Translations under genes and position numbers: made by a program | The notes under the pieces: generated by a model | Told to the model about the DNA's origin: nothing | Databases searched by the model: none | What the model saw: only the letters and a program-made list of their open reading frames with translations | Shown here: piece by piece, positions 1 to 6,465 of the stretch | Numbering within the stretch: the stretch's first letter is position 1 | Layout: every line of letters starts with the position of its first letter | Virus record (IMG/VR): IMGVR_UViG_2778261313_000001 | Coordinates: 1-6,465 of that record | Strand: one strand, 5' to 3' | Origin: a virus | Taxonomy: Duplodnaviria > Heunggongvirae > Uroviricota > Caudoviricetes | DNA: 6,465 nucleotides

Positions 1-84
1 CGGTTCAAAGCTCTGCTGAACAATTGCGATCTTTTCCTGTGTGGTACGCCGTCTGCGTTTCTCCGGCCCTAAGACATCAATCAT
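1..84 (-). CDS. insC: IS2 transposase OrfA (InsC), N-terminal 28 codons only (partial, continues beyond window start)
   Basis: ATG on - strand at 84..82; translation [28 protein letters not shown]; the basic RRRR stretch followed by QEKIAIV is the start of the IS3-family OrfA helix-turn-helix region. Confidence 0.85.
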
Positions 85-175
85 CTGTTCTCCAATGACT
101 AGTCTAAAAACTAGTATTAAGACTATCACTTATTTAAGTGATACTGGTTGTCTGGAGATTCAGGGGGCCAGTCTA
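1..175 (-). mobile_element. IS2 (IS3 family) insertion sequence, terminal ~175 bp including the inverted repeat; the rest of the element lies left of the window
   Basis: Reverse complement of 1-84 encodes [28 protein letters not shown], which I recognise as the N-terminus of IS2 OrfA/InsC, with GGAG Shine-Dalgarno upstream of its ATG. Positions 86-175 match the IS2 terminal region as I recall it, ending ...GATTCAGGGGGCCAGTCTA at 175. Identification is from memory, not a search. Confidence 0.88.
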
Positions 176-179
176 ATTC

Positions 180-782
180 TTGGTTAACATGGATAGTATT
201 AAGGGGTCTGGTGCATATTTCCCTATTATCGCTGGCTATAGTAACTTAGGTGATGTTGGTTATCGTCAGTCCTTCGAGTTTGGTTGGACGGGTAGCGGTT
301 CGACTCACGGTTGGCGTACTGGTATTATCCGTATGCGTGGCGATAACGCCAACGGGCAGCAAGCACGCTGGGAATTTACTATGGATGGTGACTTTACCGC
401 AGGTCGTAACGGTAGCTTTAACGATGTTTACATTCGCTCTGACTCCCGTTTGAAGATTAACAAGGAAGAATTACAGGACGGCGCATTAGAGAAAGTAAAC
501 TCCCTGAAAGTCTACACCTACGATAAAGTTAAATCTCTTTCAGATGACACAGTGATTAAACGCGAAGTAGGTATTATTGCTCAGGATCTGGAAGAAGTGT
601 TGCCGGAAGCAGTAGGTATTCAATCCACCGAAGATCCAGAACAACCGGAAGCAATTAAGACTATTTCTAACTCTGCTGTTAATGCCTTGATTATTAAAGC
701 TATTCAGGAAATGGACGCCAAATATCAAGCTAAGATTGAAGCATTGACTAAAGAGATTGCCGAACTCAAAGCAACTAAATAA
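180..782 (+). CDS. 3' fragment of a tail fiber/tailspike gene with C-terminal Peptidase S74-like intramolecular chaperone domain; probably truncated at its 5' side by the IS2 insertion
   Basis: Frame is open from 177, immediately at the IS2 junction (the TAA at 174-176 is formed by the IS2 end plus one flanking base). Possible starts are TTG 180 or ATG 189, neither with a convincing Shine-Dalgarno. Motif RSDSRLK (nt 435-455) gives a Ser...Lys spacing like the catalytic dyad of S74 chaperone domains, followed by GIIAQDLEEVLPEAV, typical of that domain. The part before the motif is Gly/Ser/Thr-rich, fiber-like. Ends TAATAA at 779-784. Confidence 0.6.
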   Translation: MVNMDSIKGSGAYFPIIAGYSNLGDVGYRQSFEFGWTGSGSTHGWRTGIIRMRGDNANGQQARWEFTMDGDFTAGRNGSFNDVYIRSDSRLKINKEELQDGALEKVNSLKVYTYDKVKSLSDDTVIKREVGIIAQDLEEVLPEAVGIQSTEDPEQPEAIKTISNSAVNALIIKAIQEMDAKYQAKIEALTKEIAELKATK

Positions 783-790
783 TAAAAGTC

Positions 791-807
791 GGGGGACTAG
801 TTCCCCC
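791..807 (+). terminator. GC-rich hairpin (GGGGGA-CTAGT-TCCCCC) after the fiber gene; weak terminator or RNA stability element
   Basis: 6-bp stem with 5 G:C pairs and a 5-nt loop, 8 nt past the stop; followed by an A/T-rich stretch but no immediate U-run. Confidence 0.3.
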
Positions 808-838
808 ATAATAACAATTTTAATTAAGGGGTAATTCT

Positions 839-1309
839 ATGTCTCAATTTAATGATATTTTTACTGGTGGTCTGGTAAGTCTGTTCTATCACGCTGATAC
901 CACTAACACCGCTCTCGATCACTCCGGTTACGAAGAAATTAAAGAGTGTGCTGGTTTTCCTGAAACTGGTATCGAGCGCGGTACTGTAGAAGTTAAATCC
1001 TTCTCTTCTCAGTATAACCGTAAGCTGGTAGGGAAACTGAACGTTCCTGATCTGACTCTGACCGTTAACTACATCCCAGGCGATGCGGTGCACGAGAAGC
1101 TCATTAAAGCTGCCGAAGACGGTACTCGAATTCAGATTAAGATTGAATACTATGTTGATGCAGCAAAACAGACTGGTATTCGCACCGCTTTCAACGGCTT
1201 TATTTCTAAAGTTGCTATGAACGGTGGCGATGAAGAAGTTGTAACCAAAGAGTTTACCTTCGCGGTGGACGGAAAGCCGATCAAACAGGAAATCTTCACT
1301 GCCGGATGA
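839..1309 (+). CDS. major tail tube protein, lambda gpV-like tube domain (156 aa); in-frame UGA stop followed by 41 sense codons to TAA at 1433-1435
   Basis: Shine-Dalgarno AAGGGG at 826-831, 7 nt before ATG 839. The segment DLTLTVNYIPGDAVHEKLIKAAEDGTRIQIKIEY lines up with the lambda gpV segment [34 protein letters not shown] as I recall it. Position upstream of the chaperone pair and tape measure gene; terminator downstream. Confidence 0.75.
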   Translation: MSQFNDIFTGGLVSLFYHADTTNTALDHSGYEEIKECAGFPETGIERGTVEVKSFSSQYNRKLVGKLNVPDLTLTVNYIPGDAVHEKLIKAAEDGTRIQIKIEYYVDAAKQTGIRTAFNGFISKVAMNGGDEEVVTKEFTFAVDGKPIKQEIFTAG

Positions 1310-1440
1310 ACTAACGAAGAACTTCCTTTAATAGAACCGGAACCACTACCGGAACATGAAGCGGTGGTGATTCCAGAAGTAGAAGAAGTTACGGCGAAAG
1401 CCACAGCAAAACGAGGCCGCAAGGCTAAGAATTAATTTTA

Positions 1441-1468
1441 AGCCCTGCCTTAATGGTGGGGCTTTTTT
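1441..1468 (+). terminator. rho-independent terminator after the major tail protein region
   Basis: Stem AGCCCTGCC (1441-1449) pairs with GGTGGGGCT (1455-1463), 9 bp including 2 G:U pairs, loop TTAAT, followed by TTTTT at 1464-1468. It begins 6 nt after the TAA at 1433-1435. Confidence 0.7.
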
Positions 1469-1483
1469 ATTGGAGTAATCAAA

Positions 1484-1990
1484 ATGGCAAATGTCGTTAA
1501 TAAGCCCGGCTGGGTCGGATCATCTGCTGTATCGGTGACGGGTAAGCGATGGATGAAAGAAGCATTAACAGCTTTAAAAGTTCCGGCTCCGCGTAATATG
1601 TCGGCAATGGCTGGTCGTGGTATGGATACGGTTGTAGCTACTGCATCGTGGTCTACTTCATTGGGTAATAACTGGGGTGTAACTGCTTCAAACTATCCTG
1701 TTTCCGGTATGCAAAGCAAAGGATCTATGGAGAACCCCGAAAACGTGGGCGTAGGCCGTCTAATTGGCGTTATCGTTGGTCAATTCAATGGCGGTACTCC
1801 TACTATGGCTGTATATCTCCAGAACGGTAGAGCGGGGAATATAACCGTTAATTTGGGTGGTGCTGCTGTCACTGTTCCTTATAACAGTATGCAAAGTGGT
1901 TTTCATTACTACTGGTTAAGCAATCCTCCGGCAGCTTTCCTCAATAACATTAAGAAGACTGGCACTAAGCAGACTTTGAAAATCTCTTAA
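1484..1990 (+). CDS. hypothetical protein (168 aa), Gly/Ser/Thr/Asn/Ala-rich and acid-poor, no obvious signal peptide; function unknown
   Basis: Shine-Dalgarno GGAG at 1472-1475, 8 nt before ATG 1484. 507-nt open frame in AT-rich DNA; co-oriented with and sandwiched between the major tail and chaperone genes. Confidence 0.7.
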   Translation: MANVVNKPGWVGSSAVSVTGKRWMKEALTALKVPAPRNMSAMAGRGMDTVVATASWSTSLGNNWGVTASNYPVSGMQSKGSMENPENVGVGRLIGVIVGQFNGGTPTMAVYLQNGRAGNITVNLGGAAVTVPYNSMQSGFHYYWLSNPPAAFLNNIKKTGTKQTLKIS

Positions 1991-2032
1991 ATTCTAAATA
2001 AACATATCGAATTAACTTAAGAGGAAACAAGA

Positions 2033-2341
2033 ATGAATATTAATGAAATGCTGAAAGCTCTTTCTCCGAAACGCGAATCTCTGACCATCGGTGGATTCAC
2101 TTTCTATGCTCGCCCTATGTCAGTAAAAGAATTTAACGAACATGTTTTCAATACCGATAAAGATGACCGTGATGAACGTTCTATTCTTCGTTGTATTGAA
2201 GATGAAGACGGTAAACCAGTATTTGAATCTATGGAACAAGTTAAGGCACTGTATACTAACGTCCGCAGTGAATTAATCGGTTTGGTTGCTCAAGCGTCAT
2301 TGATGCAAGATCCGACAGTAATTGAAAACGAGGTAAAGTAA
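2033..2341 (+). CDS. tail assembly chaperone, gpG-like (102 aa)
   Basis: Shine-Dalgarno AAGAGGA at 2017-2023 before ATG 2033. Small acidic protein directly upstream of the tape measure gene, with an overlapping -1 frame ORF downstream. Confidence 0.75.
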   Translation: MNINEMLKALSPKRESLTIGGFTFYARPMSVKEFNEHVFNTDKDDRDERSILRCIEDEDGKPVFESMEQVKALYTNVRSELIGLVAQASLMQDPTVIENEVK

Positions 2342-2712
2342 ACCCGCTTCTGAATTTCTATTTTCGGCAAATGATGCGATCGGGGCTTAGTAAAGATGAA
2401 ATGGATAATATGCCAATCACTCTGTTTTGGAAATTATACATTTTCGACACCTACTTAGAACCACAAAGCCCCGCGTTTCATGATATGCAGAATGCGATGT
2501 TGCAATATTCCATGTATATGACGTCGCAAGGAATGACACGCGAAACTGCACGCAAACTCAAGCCTAGCCAATTCCAATTAATTAGAGAAGAAAAACTCTT
2601 TAAAACTAAAGAAGAACTGGAAGAAATTGCACGCAAGAAAGAAGAAGAACGTAAAGCGGCAATGCTGAACATGTTTGATCCATCTTTGCTTGAGAAACTC
2701 AGAAGCGGTTAA
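2326..2712 (+). CDS. gpT-like segment of the tail assembly chaperone, probably expressed as a G-T fusion by -1 ribosomal frameshift near 2333-2341 (fusion would span 2033..2712)
   Basis: The -1 frame is open from 2326 (TGA at 2323-2325 closes it upstream), overlapping the last 16 nt of the G ORF, and runs to TAA at 2710-2712. The first in-frame ATG (2371) has no Shine-Dalgarno (preceding sequence TTTTCGGCAA). Confidence 0.6.
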   Translation, partial: KRGKVNPLLNFYFRQMMRSGLSKDEMDNMPITLFWKLYIFDTYLEPQSPAFHDMQNAMLQYSMYMTSQGMTRETARKLKPSQFQLIREEKLFKTKEELEEIARKKEEERKAAMLNMFDPSLLEKLRSG

Positions 2713-2723
2713 AGGGGTAATTT

Positions 2724-5153
2724 ATGACAAAACATATAGTAACAATAGAAGGGGATAATAAAGGTCTAAGGAGAAGTACCAATGAAGCCGCCGACCTTCT
2801 CGATAGTTTGTCTGAAAAGGCAAGTAATATTGATTTTGGTGGTGGCTTATCTGGTCTGACTGGATCTCTTCGTGGGATCGCTGGCTCTGCTGGTTTGGCT
2901 GCTGGTGGTATCGGCTTAGTTGCGACCGCAGTGGTTGCAGCCGCTAAAGCTGGCGCGGAATACGTTAAACAATATTCAGAAGTATCTAAGGCGACCGGAC
3001 TCTCGATTGAATCCCTTCAAAGACTGGAAAAGGAATTTTCTGGTACTGGCCTAACAGTTGAAAAATTCGGTGATATCAACAAAGACACCTTAGATAAGAT
3101 GGGTGATGCATGGGCTAACGGTGGTGGTATTGCTGATGACTTAGAATCGGTTGGTCTTAAGTTAGAAAACTATGCTCACTTCATGACAGATCCGCAAGGT
3201 GGTATGAAAGCGGCGATCCAAGTGTTCTATGACATGAAGAAAGCCGGAAAATCAATGGCTGAAATCAAGTTCATGATGGAATCTTTAGCCAGTGATTCAA
3301 GCCATATGACCAGCCAGCTTGAGAAATATAATAGTGCTCAAGAGGCGATGATCGCTATTCAGAATCAATCTGTTAACGTCACCGAAGAAAACGCTAAAAA
3401 ATATGATAAATTTTCTCAGAATATTAATAAGCTGGAAAATAACCTGAAAGGCGCAGCCATGACCATTACTGGTCCTTTGGTTGATAGCTTAAACTGGTTA
3501 TTTGAATGGTTTAATATTGATTGGGAAAAGAGTTCTCTATTCAGGGCATTAGACCGTCTGAATAAAGAAGGTAAGACCGCAACTGGTGGTATTCTTAACA
3601 CCAACCATAAAGACGCTCAAAAGATTATTGACAAGTACAATAAAGAAAAGCGTTGGAATAATCTAGCAGATTGGGAAAAGGCCGCGATCCGTGGTGCTGG
3701 TGTCGATCCTCGTACTGCTGGCTTTGATGTAGAAGGATTTAAGAAACGTTTTGGTGGGTCTTATAAGAAAAATGGTGCTCTGATTGTCGTAGATGCTGGT
3801 GAACATCTGACACGCAAGGCAGATCCTAACACTGATTTAACTCTACCAAATAAACCAGTAAGACCAGAATCATTGGGTAAATCTGGCAACGAGAAGAAAG
3901 CCGAGGAAGAAGCACGCAAGAAAGCGGAAGAGGCAGCTAAAAAGGCTAAGGAAGCCGCAGAAAAAGCACAGAAAGAACGTGAGGATGCAATCAAGCGTCT
4001 GAATGCACTTGATGTTAAATTGCAAGGGCAAGTTGCAGCGTCTATTGCTTCTCAAAACAAGCAGTTAGAAGCCAGCTTGAAAGATTTGGATACTGCTTTA
4101 GATCTGGGCTTAATCTCTCAGCAAGACGCAGCCGCGAAACGCCAATCCTTAATCGATCAGAATACTGAAAACGTATACAAGATGATTTTAGGTGCTGATC
4201 CGGTTGATGCTCTGAATGCTTTAACACAATTGCAACAAATCAGGGATAATGAGTTAGAAAGCCATAAACGGTTACTTGATGGTAAGGCTATCTCCTACGA
4301 AGAATATATGCGTCGTGTGAATGATACCGAACAAAGTTATTCGCAGATTGAAGATTCTTTGCATGGAATGGATGGTTTTAAAACCAATCAGTTGACCAAT
4401 AGCTTAGACTATCAGGACTCAAATAATCCGTTTGCTAAATTTAATGCAATCGATAAAGAGAAATCGGAAGCCGAACAAGATTATAAAACCGATAAACTCA
4501 AGATTGATGGGATCACCGATCCGGCTAAACGGATGGAAGAATTAGAAAAACTCAATGAAAACCATCAAAAACGAATGGCTGCAATTGAGAAGAAATATGC
4601 TGATGCTCGCCAGTCAATAGCCGATGATATGTACGGCGGTTTTGCTGCTGCAATGACTCTCTTCGGGCAGGAAAACACTAAAGCTATGCAGATGGCTTTC
4701 AATGCTCATAAAGCATTCTCTATCGGACAAGCGACGGTGAACATGTGGACGGCTGCTACCGATGCATGGAACGATCCGACCAACGTAACCACAGGTCAAA
4801 AAATCGCTGCTGCTGCATTGGCTGTTTCTCAGAACATGGGGAACATCGCAAACATCAAGTCTACTAACGTTAGCGGTATGGCTCATGATGGTATCGATAA
4901 TATCCCTCGTGAGGGTACATGGTTGCTTGATAAGGGTGAACGAGTAGTTGATCAGCGTACTAACGGTGATTTGAAAGACTTCCTTGCTGCTCAAAAATCA
5001 GGCGGTGGCAACTCTCAGCCGATTGAAGTTAACGCACCTTTGAACATTAACGGCAACGTTAATAGCTCAGACAAGATGGTCATGGATGCTATCAAACGTC
5101 ACGCTAAGTTAGTTGCTCAGGCGGTAGAAGACGCACAACGCCGTAAGATGTAA
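2724..5153 (+). CDS. tail length tape measure protein (809 aa)
   Basis: Shine-Dalgarno AAGGGG at 2712-2717 before ATG 2724. Largest gene, directly after the chaperone pair. Gly-rich hydrophobic segment near the N-terminus (GGGLSGLTGSLRGIAGSAGLAAGGIGLVATAVVAAAKAG), a K/A/E-rich coiled-coil block (KKAEEEARKKAEEAAKKAKEAAEKAQKERE), and a second hydrophobic segment toward the C-terminus. Confidence 0.9.
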   Translation: MTKHIVTIEGDNKGLRRSTNEAADLLDSLSEKASNIDFGGGLSGLTGSLRGIAGSAGLAAGGIGLVATAVVAAAKAGAEYVKQYSEVSKATGLSIESLQRLEKEFSGTGLTVEKFGDINKDTLDKMGDAWANGGGIADDLESVGLKLENYAHFMTDPQGGMKAAIQVFYDMKKAGKSMAEIKFMMESLASDSSHMTSQLEKYNSAQEAMIAIQNQSVNVTEENAKKYDKFSQNINKLENNLKGAAMTITGPLVDSLNWLFEWFNIDWEKSSLFRALDRLNKEGKTATGGILNTNHKDAQKIIDKYNKEKRWNNLADWEKAAIRGAGVDPRTAGFDVEGFKKRFGGSYKKNGALIVVDAGEHLTRKADPNTDLTLPNKPVRPESLGKSGNEKKAEEEARKKAEEAAKKAKEAAEKAQKEREDAIKRLNALDVKLQGQVAASIASQNKQLEASLKDLDTALDLGLISQQDAAAKRQSLIDQNTENVYKMILGADPVDALNALTQLQQIRDNELESHKRLLDGKAISYEEYMRRVNDTEQSYSQIEDSLHGMDGFKTNQLTNSLDYQDSNNPFAKFNAIDKEKSEAEQDYKTDKLKIDGITDPAKRMEELEKLNENHQKRMAAIEKKYADARQSIADDMYGGFAAAMTLFGQENTKAMQMAFNAHKAFSIGQATVNMWTAATDAWNDPTNVTTGQKIAAAALAVSQNMGNIANIKSTNVSGMAHDGIDNIPREGTWLLDKGERVVDQRTNGDLKDFLAAQKSGGGNSQPIEVNAPLNINGNVNSSDKMVMDAIKRHAKLVAQAVEDAQRRKM

Positions 5154-5158
5154 TTAAA

Positions 5159-5203
5159 AGCCCCCATAGTCATAAATAATCATAAAACTATGGGGGCTTT
5201 TCT
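5159..5203 (+). terminator. strong hairpin terminator after the tape measure gene; its 3' arm contains the Shine-Dalgarno of the next gene
   Basis: Perfect 12-bp inverted repeat AGCCCCCATAGT (5159-5170) / ACTATGGGGGCT (5187-5198), 16-nt loop, followed by TTTTCT and then ATG at 5204. Confidence 0.7.
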
Positions 5204-5764
5204 ATGTTCAAATCCAAGAATATTAAAATCACAGATTTTACTCTTAAATCAAAACAGCCTTTCTTCAAGGCGCAATCTATCTCCGGTAAATTTCAACGTC
5301 GCTTTACTGGCATTCATTTTTACGAAGCAGAATTTACCGCGAATTACATGGCTCAGGATATTAACGAAGTAAAAGAATTTGTAGCACGTCACCTTTTTGG
5401 TCGTCCTTTTAGTGTGCCACTGTCTTACTTTTCAAAATATACAGGTGATGTACGCCAGATGGTTACGGCTGCTGCTGGTACTGCTCGCGGTGGGCGTAAG
5501 GTGAGAATCTCCAACTTCACCGGAACACTGAAAGCGGGAACTATCATCCAGTTTGAGAACCACAAGAAAATCTACACGATCACCGAAGATGTGAAATCAG
5601 GTGGCGAAATGAAACTCTTCCCTAATTTGCGTCAGAACGTCCTGGCTGGTGAGGTGATCAAGTATCAGAACGTAGAAGGTGAATTTGTTCTCAAAACGGA
5701 AAATATCGATTGGAAGATCGCCCAGATTGGCAAGATGAAATTCGAATTAGTGGAGAATGTATAA
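5204..5764 (+). CDS. minor tail protein immediately after the tape measure gene (186 aa); candidate distal tail or tail tip assembly protein
   Basis: ATG 5204 with GGGGG (5192-5196) 7 nt upstream; stop TAA 5762-5764. Assignment rests on synteny only. Confidence 0.75.
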   Translation: MFKSKNIKITDFTLKSKQPFFKAQSISGKFQRRFTGIHFYEAEFTANYMAQDINEVKEFVARHLFGRPFSVPLSYFSKYTGDVRQMVTAAAGTARGGRKVRISNFTGTLKAGTIIQFENHKKIYTITEDVKSGGEMKLFPNLRQNVLAGEVIKYQNVEGEFVLKTENIDWKIAQIGKMKFELVENV

Positions 5765-6393
5765 TGGCAACTATTCAGGAATCATTCAGCAAACTATGCA
5801 CTAATCTGGACTTCATCGAGGTATACAACGACCAGACAGGTCAGAATGTGTCTAGATTGACTCTACCGCAGCTTTTCTCTACTGGCTCGATGTTTCACAT
5901 TATCGAAGTGATAACAGCGTCAGGGGACGTTCTACGGCTTACAGATGGGTATTTCGATTTGGACTATAACGGTTTTACATATCTCGCAACGGGTGATTTT
6001 CTTCAAATCTCATCGAATACCGAAGAGAAGGAGATCAACAACAACGGGATCAACGTAACTGTTTCTAACGTTCGCGAAGAATACATTAGCCTGATTCGAA
6101 ACAAGCAATTCGATAAATCTGATGTGAAAATCGAGATGGTTTTCCTTAACCCCAACACGGGCAAGGTTGAAACTACTTACCCTGTTTTCCGTGGGGTAGT
6201 CGATTCCATCGGTATTAACATCGAACATGAAGATGATGAGTGTAAAAACGAATCAGAATTTCAGCTTAATAGTATCTGGGAAGTTCTAGATAAAAACGCT
6301 CGTAGTCATGCCTCCGATGGTATCCACCGATCCTATGTTGGAAACGAGAACGATCTATTCTTCTCTCGTGCCGGGAAGTGGCAAAGCGGGTAA
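5764..6393 (+). CDS. minor tail / tail tip protein, 3'-truncated by IS1; phage-derived part is 5764..6388 and the stop codon comes from the IS1 terminus
   Basis: ATG at 5764-5766 overlaps the upstream stop (TAATG) with GGAG at 5752-5755; the track's 5710 start would overlap the upstream gene by 55 nt and is less likely. The frame runs into the IS1 terminal repeat that begins at 6389; the last codon GGG spans the junction and TAA 6391-6393 is IS1 sequence. Confidence 0.7.
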   Translation: MATIQESFSKLCTNLDFIEVYNDQTGQNVSRLTLPQLFSTGSMFHIIEVITASGDVLRLTDGYFDLDYNGFTYLATGDFLQISSNTEEKEINNNGINVTVSNVREEYISLIRNKQFDKSDVKIEMVFLNPNTGKVETTYPVFRGVVDSIGINIEHEDDECKNESEFQLNSIWEVLDKNARSHASDGIHRSYVGNENDLFFSRAGKWQSG

Positions 6394-6465
6394 TGACTCC
6401 AACTTATTGATAGTGTTTTATGTTCAGATAATGCCCGATGACTTTGTCATGCAGCTCCACCGATT
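6389..6465 (-). mobile_element. IS1 insertion sequence, terminal 77 bp (right inverted repeat end); the element continues beyond the window
   Basis: 6389-6465 reads GGTAATGACTCCAACTTATTGATAGTGTTTTATGTTCAGATAATGCCCGATGACTTTGTCATGCAGCTCCACCGATT, which I recognise as the reverse complement of the IS1 right end, including the 23-bp terminal repeat GGTAATGACTCCAACTTATTGAT. From memory, not a search. Confidence 0.88.
6404..6465 (-). CDS. insB: IS1 transposase InsB, C-terminal ~20 codons (partial)
   Basis: - strand translation ends ...[21 protein letters not shown] with stop TAA at 6406..6404, matching the InsB C-terminus as recalled. Confidence 0.8.
   Translation of the reverse strand, partial: [19 protein letters not shown]

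Follow-up and report, generated by a model that had tools for sequence, protein, structure and literature searches.

Probable division of a gp37-type tail fiber gene by IS2 in a decaying, siphovirus-type prophage

The 6,465-nt stretch of viral DNA analyzed here, referred to below as the window, begins with one end of the insertion sequence IS2 lying directly against the 3' part of a tail fiber gene. We consider it very likely that an IS2 insertion split a 1202-codon prophage tail fiber gene, in the course of ordinary prophage decay. IS2 (1331 bp) would have inserted antisense after nt 3007 of the 3609-nt gene, between codons 1002 and 1003, and would have duplicated the 5-bp target ATTCT, leaving in the window the IRL end of the element and, cut off from the rest of the gene, its last 201 codons. 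The original prediction, made from the letters of the window alone, had likewise proposed that IS2 split a longer fiber gene, and the intact gene was found: window 176-782 is the final 607 nt of a 3609-nt CDS encoding 1202 aa in Escherichia coli HCP5S3_I4 (L001) and CE0007a (L002). The features of the window are collected in Table 1.

Table 1. Positions of the IS elements, the fiber gene remnant and neighboring genes in the window.
Feature	Position	Strand	Remarks
IS2 left end (IS3 family)	1-175	minus	ends ...CCAGTCTA at 175
IS2 42-bp IRL	134-175	minus	41 of 42 positions as in the published IRL
IS2 transposase OrfA (insC), first 28 codons	84-1	minus	from translation
TAA stop in the fiber frame	174-176	plus	last two IS2 bases and first duplication base
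ATTCT, right-hand copy of the 5-bp target-site duplication	176-180		IS2 insertion
3' fiber gene fragment	177-782	plus	codons 1002-1202 and stop of the 1202-codon gp37-type gene
Distal tip, last 87 residues of the mature fiber	177-437	plus	ends in strand DVYIR
C-terminal Peptidase_S74 intramolecular chaperone, 114 aa	438-779	plus	PF13884
Tail tube protein gene, 156 aa	839-1309	plus	intact; downstream neighbor of the fiber gene
gp38-like tail fiber adhesin gene, 168 aa	1484-1990	plus	Pfam Gp38_N, E = 2.1e-15
IS1 end, 77 nt	6389-6465		100% identical to IS1 in many phage records

A member of the IS3 family, IS2 transposes by a copy-out/paste-in route via a figure-of-eight and a minicircle. The element had been said to terminate at 175 and the fiber frame to open at 177, and both statements were borne out by the 100% identity of window 1-175 to the IS2 annotated at L003 8001-8175 in E. 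coli E275a and by the stop codon formed at the junction. Minus-strand translation of window 1-84 gave 28 residues that we take to be the start of IS2 OrfA/InsC, and an HTH_Tnp_1 gene was called at the OrfA position in three other contigs (L008-L010); IS2 transcription is directed away from the fiber fragment. The reverse complement of 134-175 matches the published IRL TAGACTGGCCCCCTGAATCTCC... with a single mismatch, the 42-bp repeat being given as beginning TAGACTGGCCCCCTGAATCTCCAGACAACCA... (PMC3299598). At window 144 (IRL position 32), G is found in place of the A of the published IRL (AACCAGTATCAC vs AACCAATATCAC), and the same variant occurs in the E275a copy. The IRR of the element, ...GGGGCAAATCCA, was read at the matching junction in two metagenome contigs, L012 and L005. 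As the window itself contains 175 bp of IS2, the length of the element was taken from L005, in which the full IS2 at a junction identical to that of the window measures exactly 1331 bp and has gene calls for HTH_Tnp_1 and rve. Terminal inverted repeats, 1331 bp with orfA and orfB, and a 5-bp target duplication were thereby all found for this element. Its last base is 175, the match to the intact fiber gene starts at 176, and none of the features at the boundary is a chance match.

The frame of the fragment was fixed by alignment to the intact CDS (L001 4999-8607, product WP_032083079.1), in which the fragment corresponds to 8001-8607. With a TAA at the junction, the fiber frame opens at 177 and runs to 782, giving 200 aa from TTG180 or 197 aa from ATG189, the start chosen by gene callers. 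The fragment of about 200 aa had been described as carrying a C-terminal S74 chaperone, and the proposed search against Peptidase_S74 profiles gave a Pfam match at aa 87-145 (55.3 bits against a cut-off of 22, E = 8.2e-15), equivalent to aa 1089-1147 at the C-terminus of the 1202-aa fiber protein; both motifs quoted at the time, RSDSRLK and GIIAQDLEEVLPEAV, are present. The autocleavage serine is predicted to be Ser1089 of the intact protein (codon 438-440), with a Lys five residues after it (codon 453-455). These two residues of SDSRLK are presumably the S74 catalytic dyad, a Ser-Lys pair reportedly described by Schulz et al. in 2010. The S-x-x-x-x-K pattern is thus present in SDSRLK at aa 87-92, which aligns with SDRRIK of S16 gp37. 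The cleavage motif of the fragment, DVYIR^SDSRLKI, matches the site DVYIR^SDGRLKI of the fPS phages, that of S16 being DLNVS^SDRRIKK (PMC7917993).

Two IS-free copies of the locus were found in the complete E. coli genomes searched. HCP5S3_I4 differs from window 176-6388 by 1 mismatch in 6213 bases (99.98% identity), and CE0007a is 96.6% identical to the window. Comparison with relatives lacking the IS, suggested in the original prediction, thus yielded an uninterrupted 1202-aa fiber gene in both, annotated in each as a "tail fiber domain-containing protein". Its product matches phrog_1699, 'long tail fiber protein distal subunit', with E = 2e-128 and contains Gp34_trimer (aa 637-746) and S74 (aa 1089-1147) domains; it is laid out as an N-terminal repeat region, Gp34_trimer, a shaft, a tip ending in DVYIR and the 114-aa S74 chaperone. 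The disrupted fiber is a T-even gp37-type long tail fiber. All prophage genes examined in CE0007a are intact. The HCP5S3_I4 comparator is itself damaged, a different IS2 lying beside its capsid gene.

The intact site in L001 reads GACCGTGCTCC-ATTCT-TGGTTAACATGG, with ATTCT in single copy (GCTCC-ATTCT-TGGTT). In the window, the right junction reads CCAGTCTA/ATTCT-TGGTT, where the slash marks the IS2 boundary. The reciprocal left junction was read in the metagenome contig OJKF01000175.1 (L012), the only return when metagenome contigs were scanned with the 29 nt upstream of the site. There, the 5' part of the fiber gene is followed by the right end of IS2 in the same orientation as in the window (...GTGACCGTGCTCC ATTCT/TGGATTTGCCCC...); the bases at the boundary are GCTCC-ATTCT/TGGATTTGCC, the latter from the IRR, and the junction is also written out as ATTCT/TGGATTTGCCCCTATATTTCCAGACATCTGTTATCACTTAA... 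The 5' part carries GGCGGCATTACCTTTAACCGTCG about 100 nt upstream of the insertion site. Taken together, the window and L012 junctions, which come from different samples, give the 5-bp ATTCT duplication expected of a simple IS2 insertion.

A near-precise loss of the element appears to be preserved in a further contig. In L011 (Logan SRR24578001, 4170-4200), the position corresponding to window 175/176 is without IS2 and reads CCATTCT-A-ATTCTTGG. This allele, CCATTCTAATTCTTGG, retains both ATTCT copies plus one base, 6 bp in excess of the intact gene, and the extra bases make an in-frame TAA. It looks like the scar of a near-precise natural IS2 excision, with the element possibly lost via TCT microhomology. 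As the L011 sequence is derivable only from an insertion allele, it is an independent sign that ATTCT once flanked IS2 on both sides. We also considered L011 as a pre-insertion ancestor and rejected this, since insertion of IS2 into either ATTCT copy gives junctions unlike those observed.

The window stops 175 bases into IS2 and, with IS2 at one end and IS1 at the other, resembles an entire contig from short-read assembly, so the far side of the element is unreadable in the window's own assembly. The original prediction had called for a fiber ORF on that far side and a 5-bp duplication of the flanking bases; both were recovered in L012, where the fiber 5' part precedes ATTCT and IS2, and the flank in L005 differs. 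All three checks proposed in the prediction favored a split gene. Four NCBI assemblies bear on the same point. In these, a partial protein ending ...DRAP at a contig end (P0121) and partial proteins starting LVNMD or VNMD (P0138/P0139) have neighboring accession numbers, from which both halves of the fiber gene appear to be in the same four genomes, each contig broken exactly at the IS site. We think it quite likely that the 5' half still adjoins this IS2 in the window's own genome, the estimate being held below certainty by the differing left flank of L005. In the collection of complete E. coli genomes, none carried this IS2-fiber junction, only the IS-free copies and one independent insertion being present. 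Neither the 50 nt of the right junction nor the 29 nt upstream of the site had an exact match in genome_contigs, which says little for a set holding one genome per species.

The L005 flank is a point in favor of a different history, in which the fiber 5' part no longer lies beside this IS2 in the window's genome, owing to IS2-IS2 recombination or an adjacent deletion or inversion, and the fragment marks the edge of a rearrangement and not half of a simple insertion. In L005 (ENA ERZ27227080 k119_127366), a right junction identical to that of the window is followed, on the other side of the complete 1331-bp element, by a lom/ail gene from a different prophage-like region, and the far flank is TCCTG instead of ATTCT, with no target duplication. 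The same junction also occurs in variously deleted downstream contexts (L004, L005 and L008-L010), indicating a region prone to rearrangement. L005 is, however, a MEGAHIT contig assembled from short metagenome reads across a multicopy 1.3-kb repeat and may be chimeric, whereas the left junction in L012 fits a simple insertion and the four isolate assemblies seem to hold both halves. We regard such a history as unlikely for the window and, even if true in some strains, it would be secondary to the same primary insertion; L005 would reflect a secondary rearrangement mediated by IS2 or else a chimera formed in metagenome assembly. The lom/ail junction occupies L005 5697-7498, and IS66-family elements are nearby.

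Simple insertion could also be given an adaptive meaning. E. coli E275a has an independent antisense IS2 at another site in the homologous fiber gene (L003 6845-8175), with the duplication GAACG on both sides within one genome. These two independent antisense insertions, in the window lineage and in E275a, and the near-precise loss in one lineage, are the grounds for the suggestion that IS2 disruption of the fiber gene is recurrent and selected as a switch-off of gp37/gp38, or that the orphan tip-plus-chaperone is expressed as a free protein. We judge this very doubtful and retain a simple insertion with ordinary decay as the preferred reading.

Exceedingly improbable is the reading implied by the RefSeq annotation, by which the 197-200-aa ORF would be a genuine stand-alone fiber-tip or chaperone gene. 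RefSeq lists the 197-aa product as WP_024245686.1 under the name "tail fiber domain-containing protein"; the ORF is intact with a complete S74 domain, and exactly this product was called in 51 blocks of the contig collection. Yet ATG189 is the internal Met1006 of a 1202-aa protein identical over the stretch, and the contigs read that encode the product all carry the IS2 junction or, in one case, the 6-bp TAA scar at the same site. The profile matches of the fragment are confined to the extreme C-terminal end of fiber families of 500-1500 aa, as with phrog_1699 ('long tail fiber distal subunit'), where it covers profile positions 814-996 of 1000 (E = 1e-52). The earlier remark that no convincing Shine-Dalgarno precedes ATG189 or TTG180 agrees with our direct reading, in which no AGGAG-like run was seen before either start, the bases before ATG189 being agtctaattcttggttaac; scanning the plus strand upstream of 189 turned up nothing resembling a promoter. 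A complete homologue of about 200 aa with this start in intact phages, named beforehand as the finding that would count against a split gene, did not turn up, and an exact look-up of the 200-aa product starting at TTG gave no record. The stand-alone reading can be taken as largely refuted already. Because a Shine-Dalgarno and a promoter-like site are both missing and an in-frame TAA lies directly before it, the downstream ORF of 197 or 200 aa is very probably unexpressed, and the 197-aa "protein" is an annotation by-product of the IS2 insertion, a pseudogene fragment.

That the junction is an assembly artefact at a chimeric contig end has a negligible probability: the window does look like a whole short-read contig with repeats at both ends, IS2 contributing 175 nt and IS1 77 nt, and in a nearly identical SPAdes contig of 6465 nt (L007) each IS accounts for 126 nt, but the identical right junction was found in seven contigs (L004-L010) from NCBI, ENA and Logan, with different assemblers and samples, and the reciprocal junction and the excision scar fall at the same 5 bases.

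The IS2 insertion is one of several lesions in this prophage. A 2-bp deletion at nt 1643-1644 of the fiber gene (GATAATAAC to GATAAAC) lies outside the window and was seen in both contigs where the 5' part can be read with this allele, near 2914 in L012 and 2823 in L011, so the scar allele has the same frameshift as the IS2-bearing allele. The deletion splits the 5' part into pieces of 553 aa and 455-469 aa and, together with IS2, leaves the fiber gene broken twice. A predicted N-terminal product of 1015 aa (aa 1-1002 plus LDLPLYFQTSVIT) gave no record in an exact look-up, which is accounted for by the frameshift, the real products being the two shorter pieces. At the other end of the window, homology to L001 ends at 6388, and the tail gene starting at 5764 (5764-6417) is cut short by IS1, losing about its final 29 nt. 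In L008-L010 this IS1 end directly follows window 5469, with 5470-6388 beside it deleted; the phage sequence of L004 breaks off at window 1392, beyond which lie chromosomal genes; and the tail tube gene of L005 is truncated by another transposase. Taking the IS2 insertion, the 2-bp frameshift and the IS1 truncation together, the prophage is cryptic, decaying and multiply disrupted, and of siphovirus type.

The tail tube gene downstream of the fiber fragment matched Pfam Phage_TTP_11 (29.0 bits against a cut-off of 28.4, E = 1e-6) and carries the annotation "phage tail tube protein" in L002. Its TGA (1307-1309) is followed by an in-frame open stretch of 41 codons, TNEELPLIEPEPLPEHEAVVIPEVEEVTAKATAKRGRKAKN* (window 1307-1435), that is conserved in frame in L002 and, with two aa changes, in the more divergent L003; it may extend the tube protein by read-through of the stop codon. 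The gene order is odd for a siphovirus-type tail module (window 839-5153, L001/L002). In L001/L002 the 1202-aa fiber gene stands between head-completion and tail tube genes, and the gp38-like adhesin gene comes after the tube gene and before those for the tail assembly chaperones. No close isolated phage relative was found, a nucleotide search matching fiber-tip segments and IS1 only, and the best tape measure match to an isolated phage was 37% aa identity, with Escherichia phage DCP80.

In the intact fiber, the chaperone would normally drive trimer folding and cleave itself off at Ser1089, exposing the tip for the gp38-like adhesin. In the interrupted allele, the tip and chaperone are separated from the shaft. 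Translation from upstream would end 13 IS2-encoded codons past Phe1002 and, because such a product is without the trimer-folding chaperone and the gp38 docking tip, it would be unable to fold into a functional fiber; this expectation draws on what is established for S74 chaperones and S16-type fibers. Autoproteolytic release after trimerization is moot once the S74 domain has been cut off from its fiber. The prophage would then lack receptor-binding side fibers. Its gp38-like protein, which matched phrog_1121 ('tail fiber adhesin') with E = 2e-34, is presumed from sequence to be the docking partner of the fiber tip, and it has no complete fiber left to dock on. For annotation, it follows that WP_024245686.1 should be marked as a pseudogene and the carrier prophage scored as defective. 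The lesions lie in sequence otherwise separated by only 1 base in 6.2 kb from that of a copy whose fiber gene is intact, and the locus is a clean natural case of stepwise IS-driven prophage decay.

Set against known systems, the locus is a textbook IS2 insertion in a gp37/gp38-type locus and is nothing new in kind, with no new type of gene. It resembles classical E. coli IS2 insertions in its IRL, in the 1331-bp length and in the 5-bp duplication, as well as in the interruption of a host gene with an IS-encoded stop soon after the break. There is no difference in mechanism; the target here is a prophage tail fiber gene.

The fiber also compares with the S16/T2-type gp37 and gp38 system (PDB 6F45; Dunne et al. 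2018, known here through its citation in PMC7917993). In fibers of this type, the last ~113 residues form a chaperone whose removal by cleavage uncovers the surface on which gp38 docks, the DVYIR strand (PMC7917993). The prophage has both homology to gp37 distal subunits and a Gp38_N-bearing adhesin gene nearby, and the fragment aligns to the C-terminus of S16 gp37 (PDB 6F45) over SSDRRIK as well as the chaperone. Both systems have an S74 chaperone at the fiber C-terminus, a motif of this kind at the cleavage site, and a gp38-like protein with Gp38_N that is encoded by its own gene. In contrast to the T-even myovirus setting of S16/T2, the prophage genes lie in a siphovirus-type tail module (lambda-like tube, G/T-like chaperones and tape measure), with the fiber gene upstream of the tail tube gene, which separates it from the gp38-like gene. 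Moreover, the prophage gp38-like protein is only 168 aa and the similarity to S16 gp37 is weak (E = 0.0016).

A closer match is the gp37-position protein of the T-even-like Krischvirus phage Cognac (QZI93826.1, 971 aa), which shares 73% aa identity over aa 290-1199 of the fiber; at the nucleotide level, its gene is 89.7% identical to the tip region (window 176-475). The prophage protein differs in having ~290 additional N-terminal repeat residues, and the remaining genomes are unrelated. Exchange of T-even fiber modules with temperate phages has long been known from lambda stf/tfa and T4 gp37/gp38. The prophage resembles laboratory and cryptic lambdoid prophages with inactivated side-tail-fiber genes such as stf, in which a side-fiber gene derived from T-even gp37 has likewise been lost through a frameshift or an insertion, and, as in these, the tail genes of the window remain open reading frames except for the one cut by IS1. 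It differs from lambda PaPa, whose stf frameshift was reportedly described by Hendrix and Duda in 1992, in the nature of the lesion, which in the window is an inserted IS2, the 2-bp deletion lying upstream, and in that the prophage is not lambda-like in sequence.
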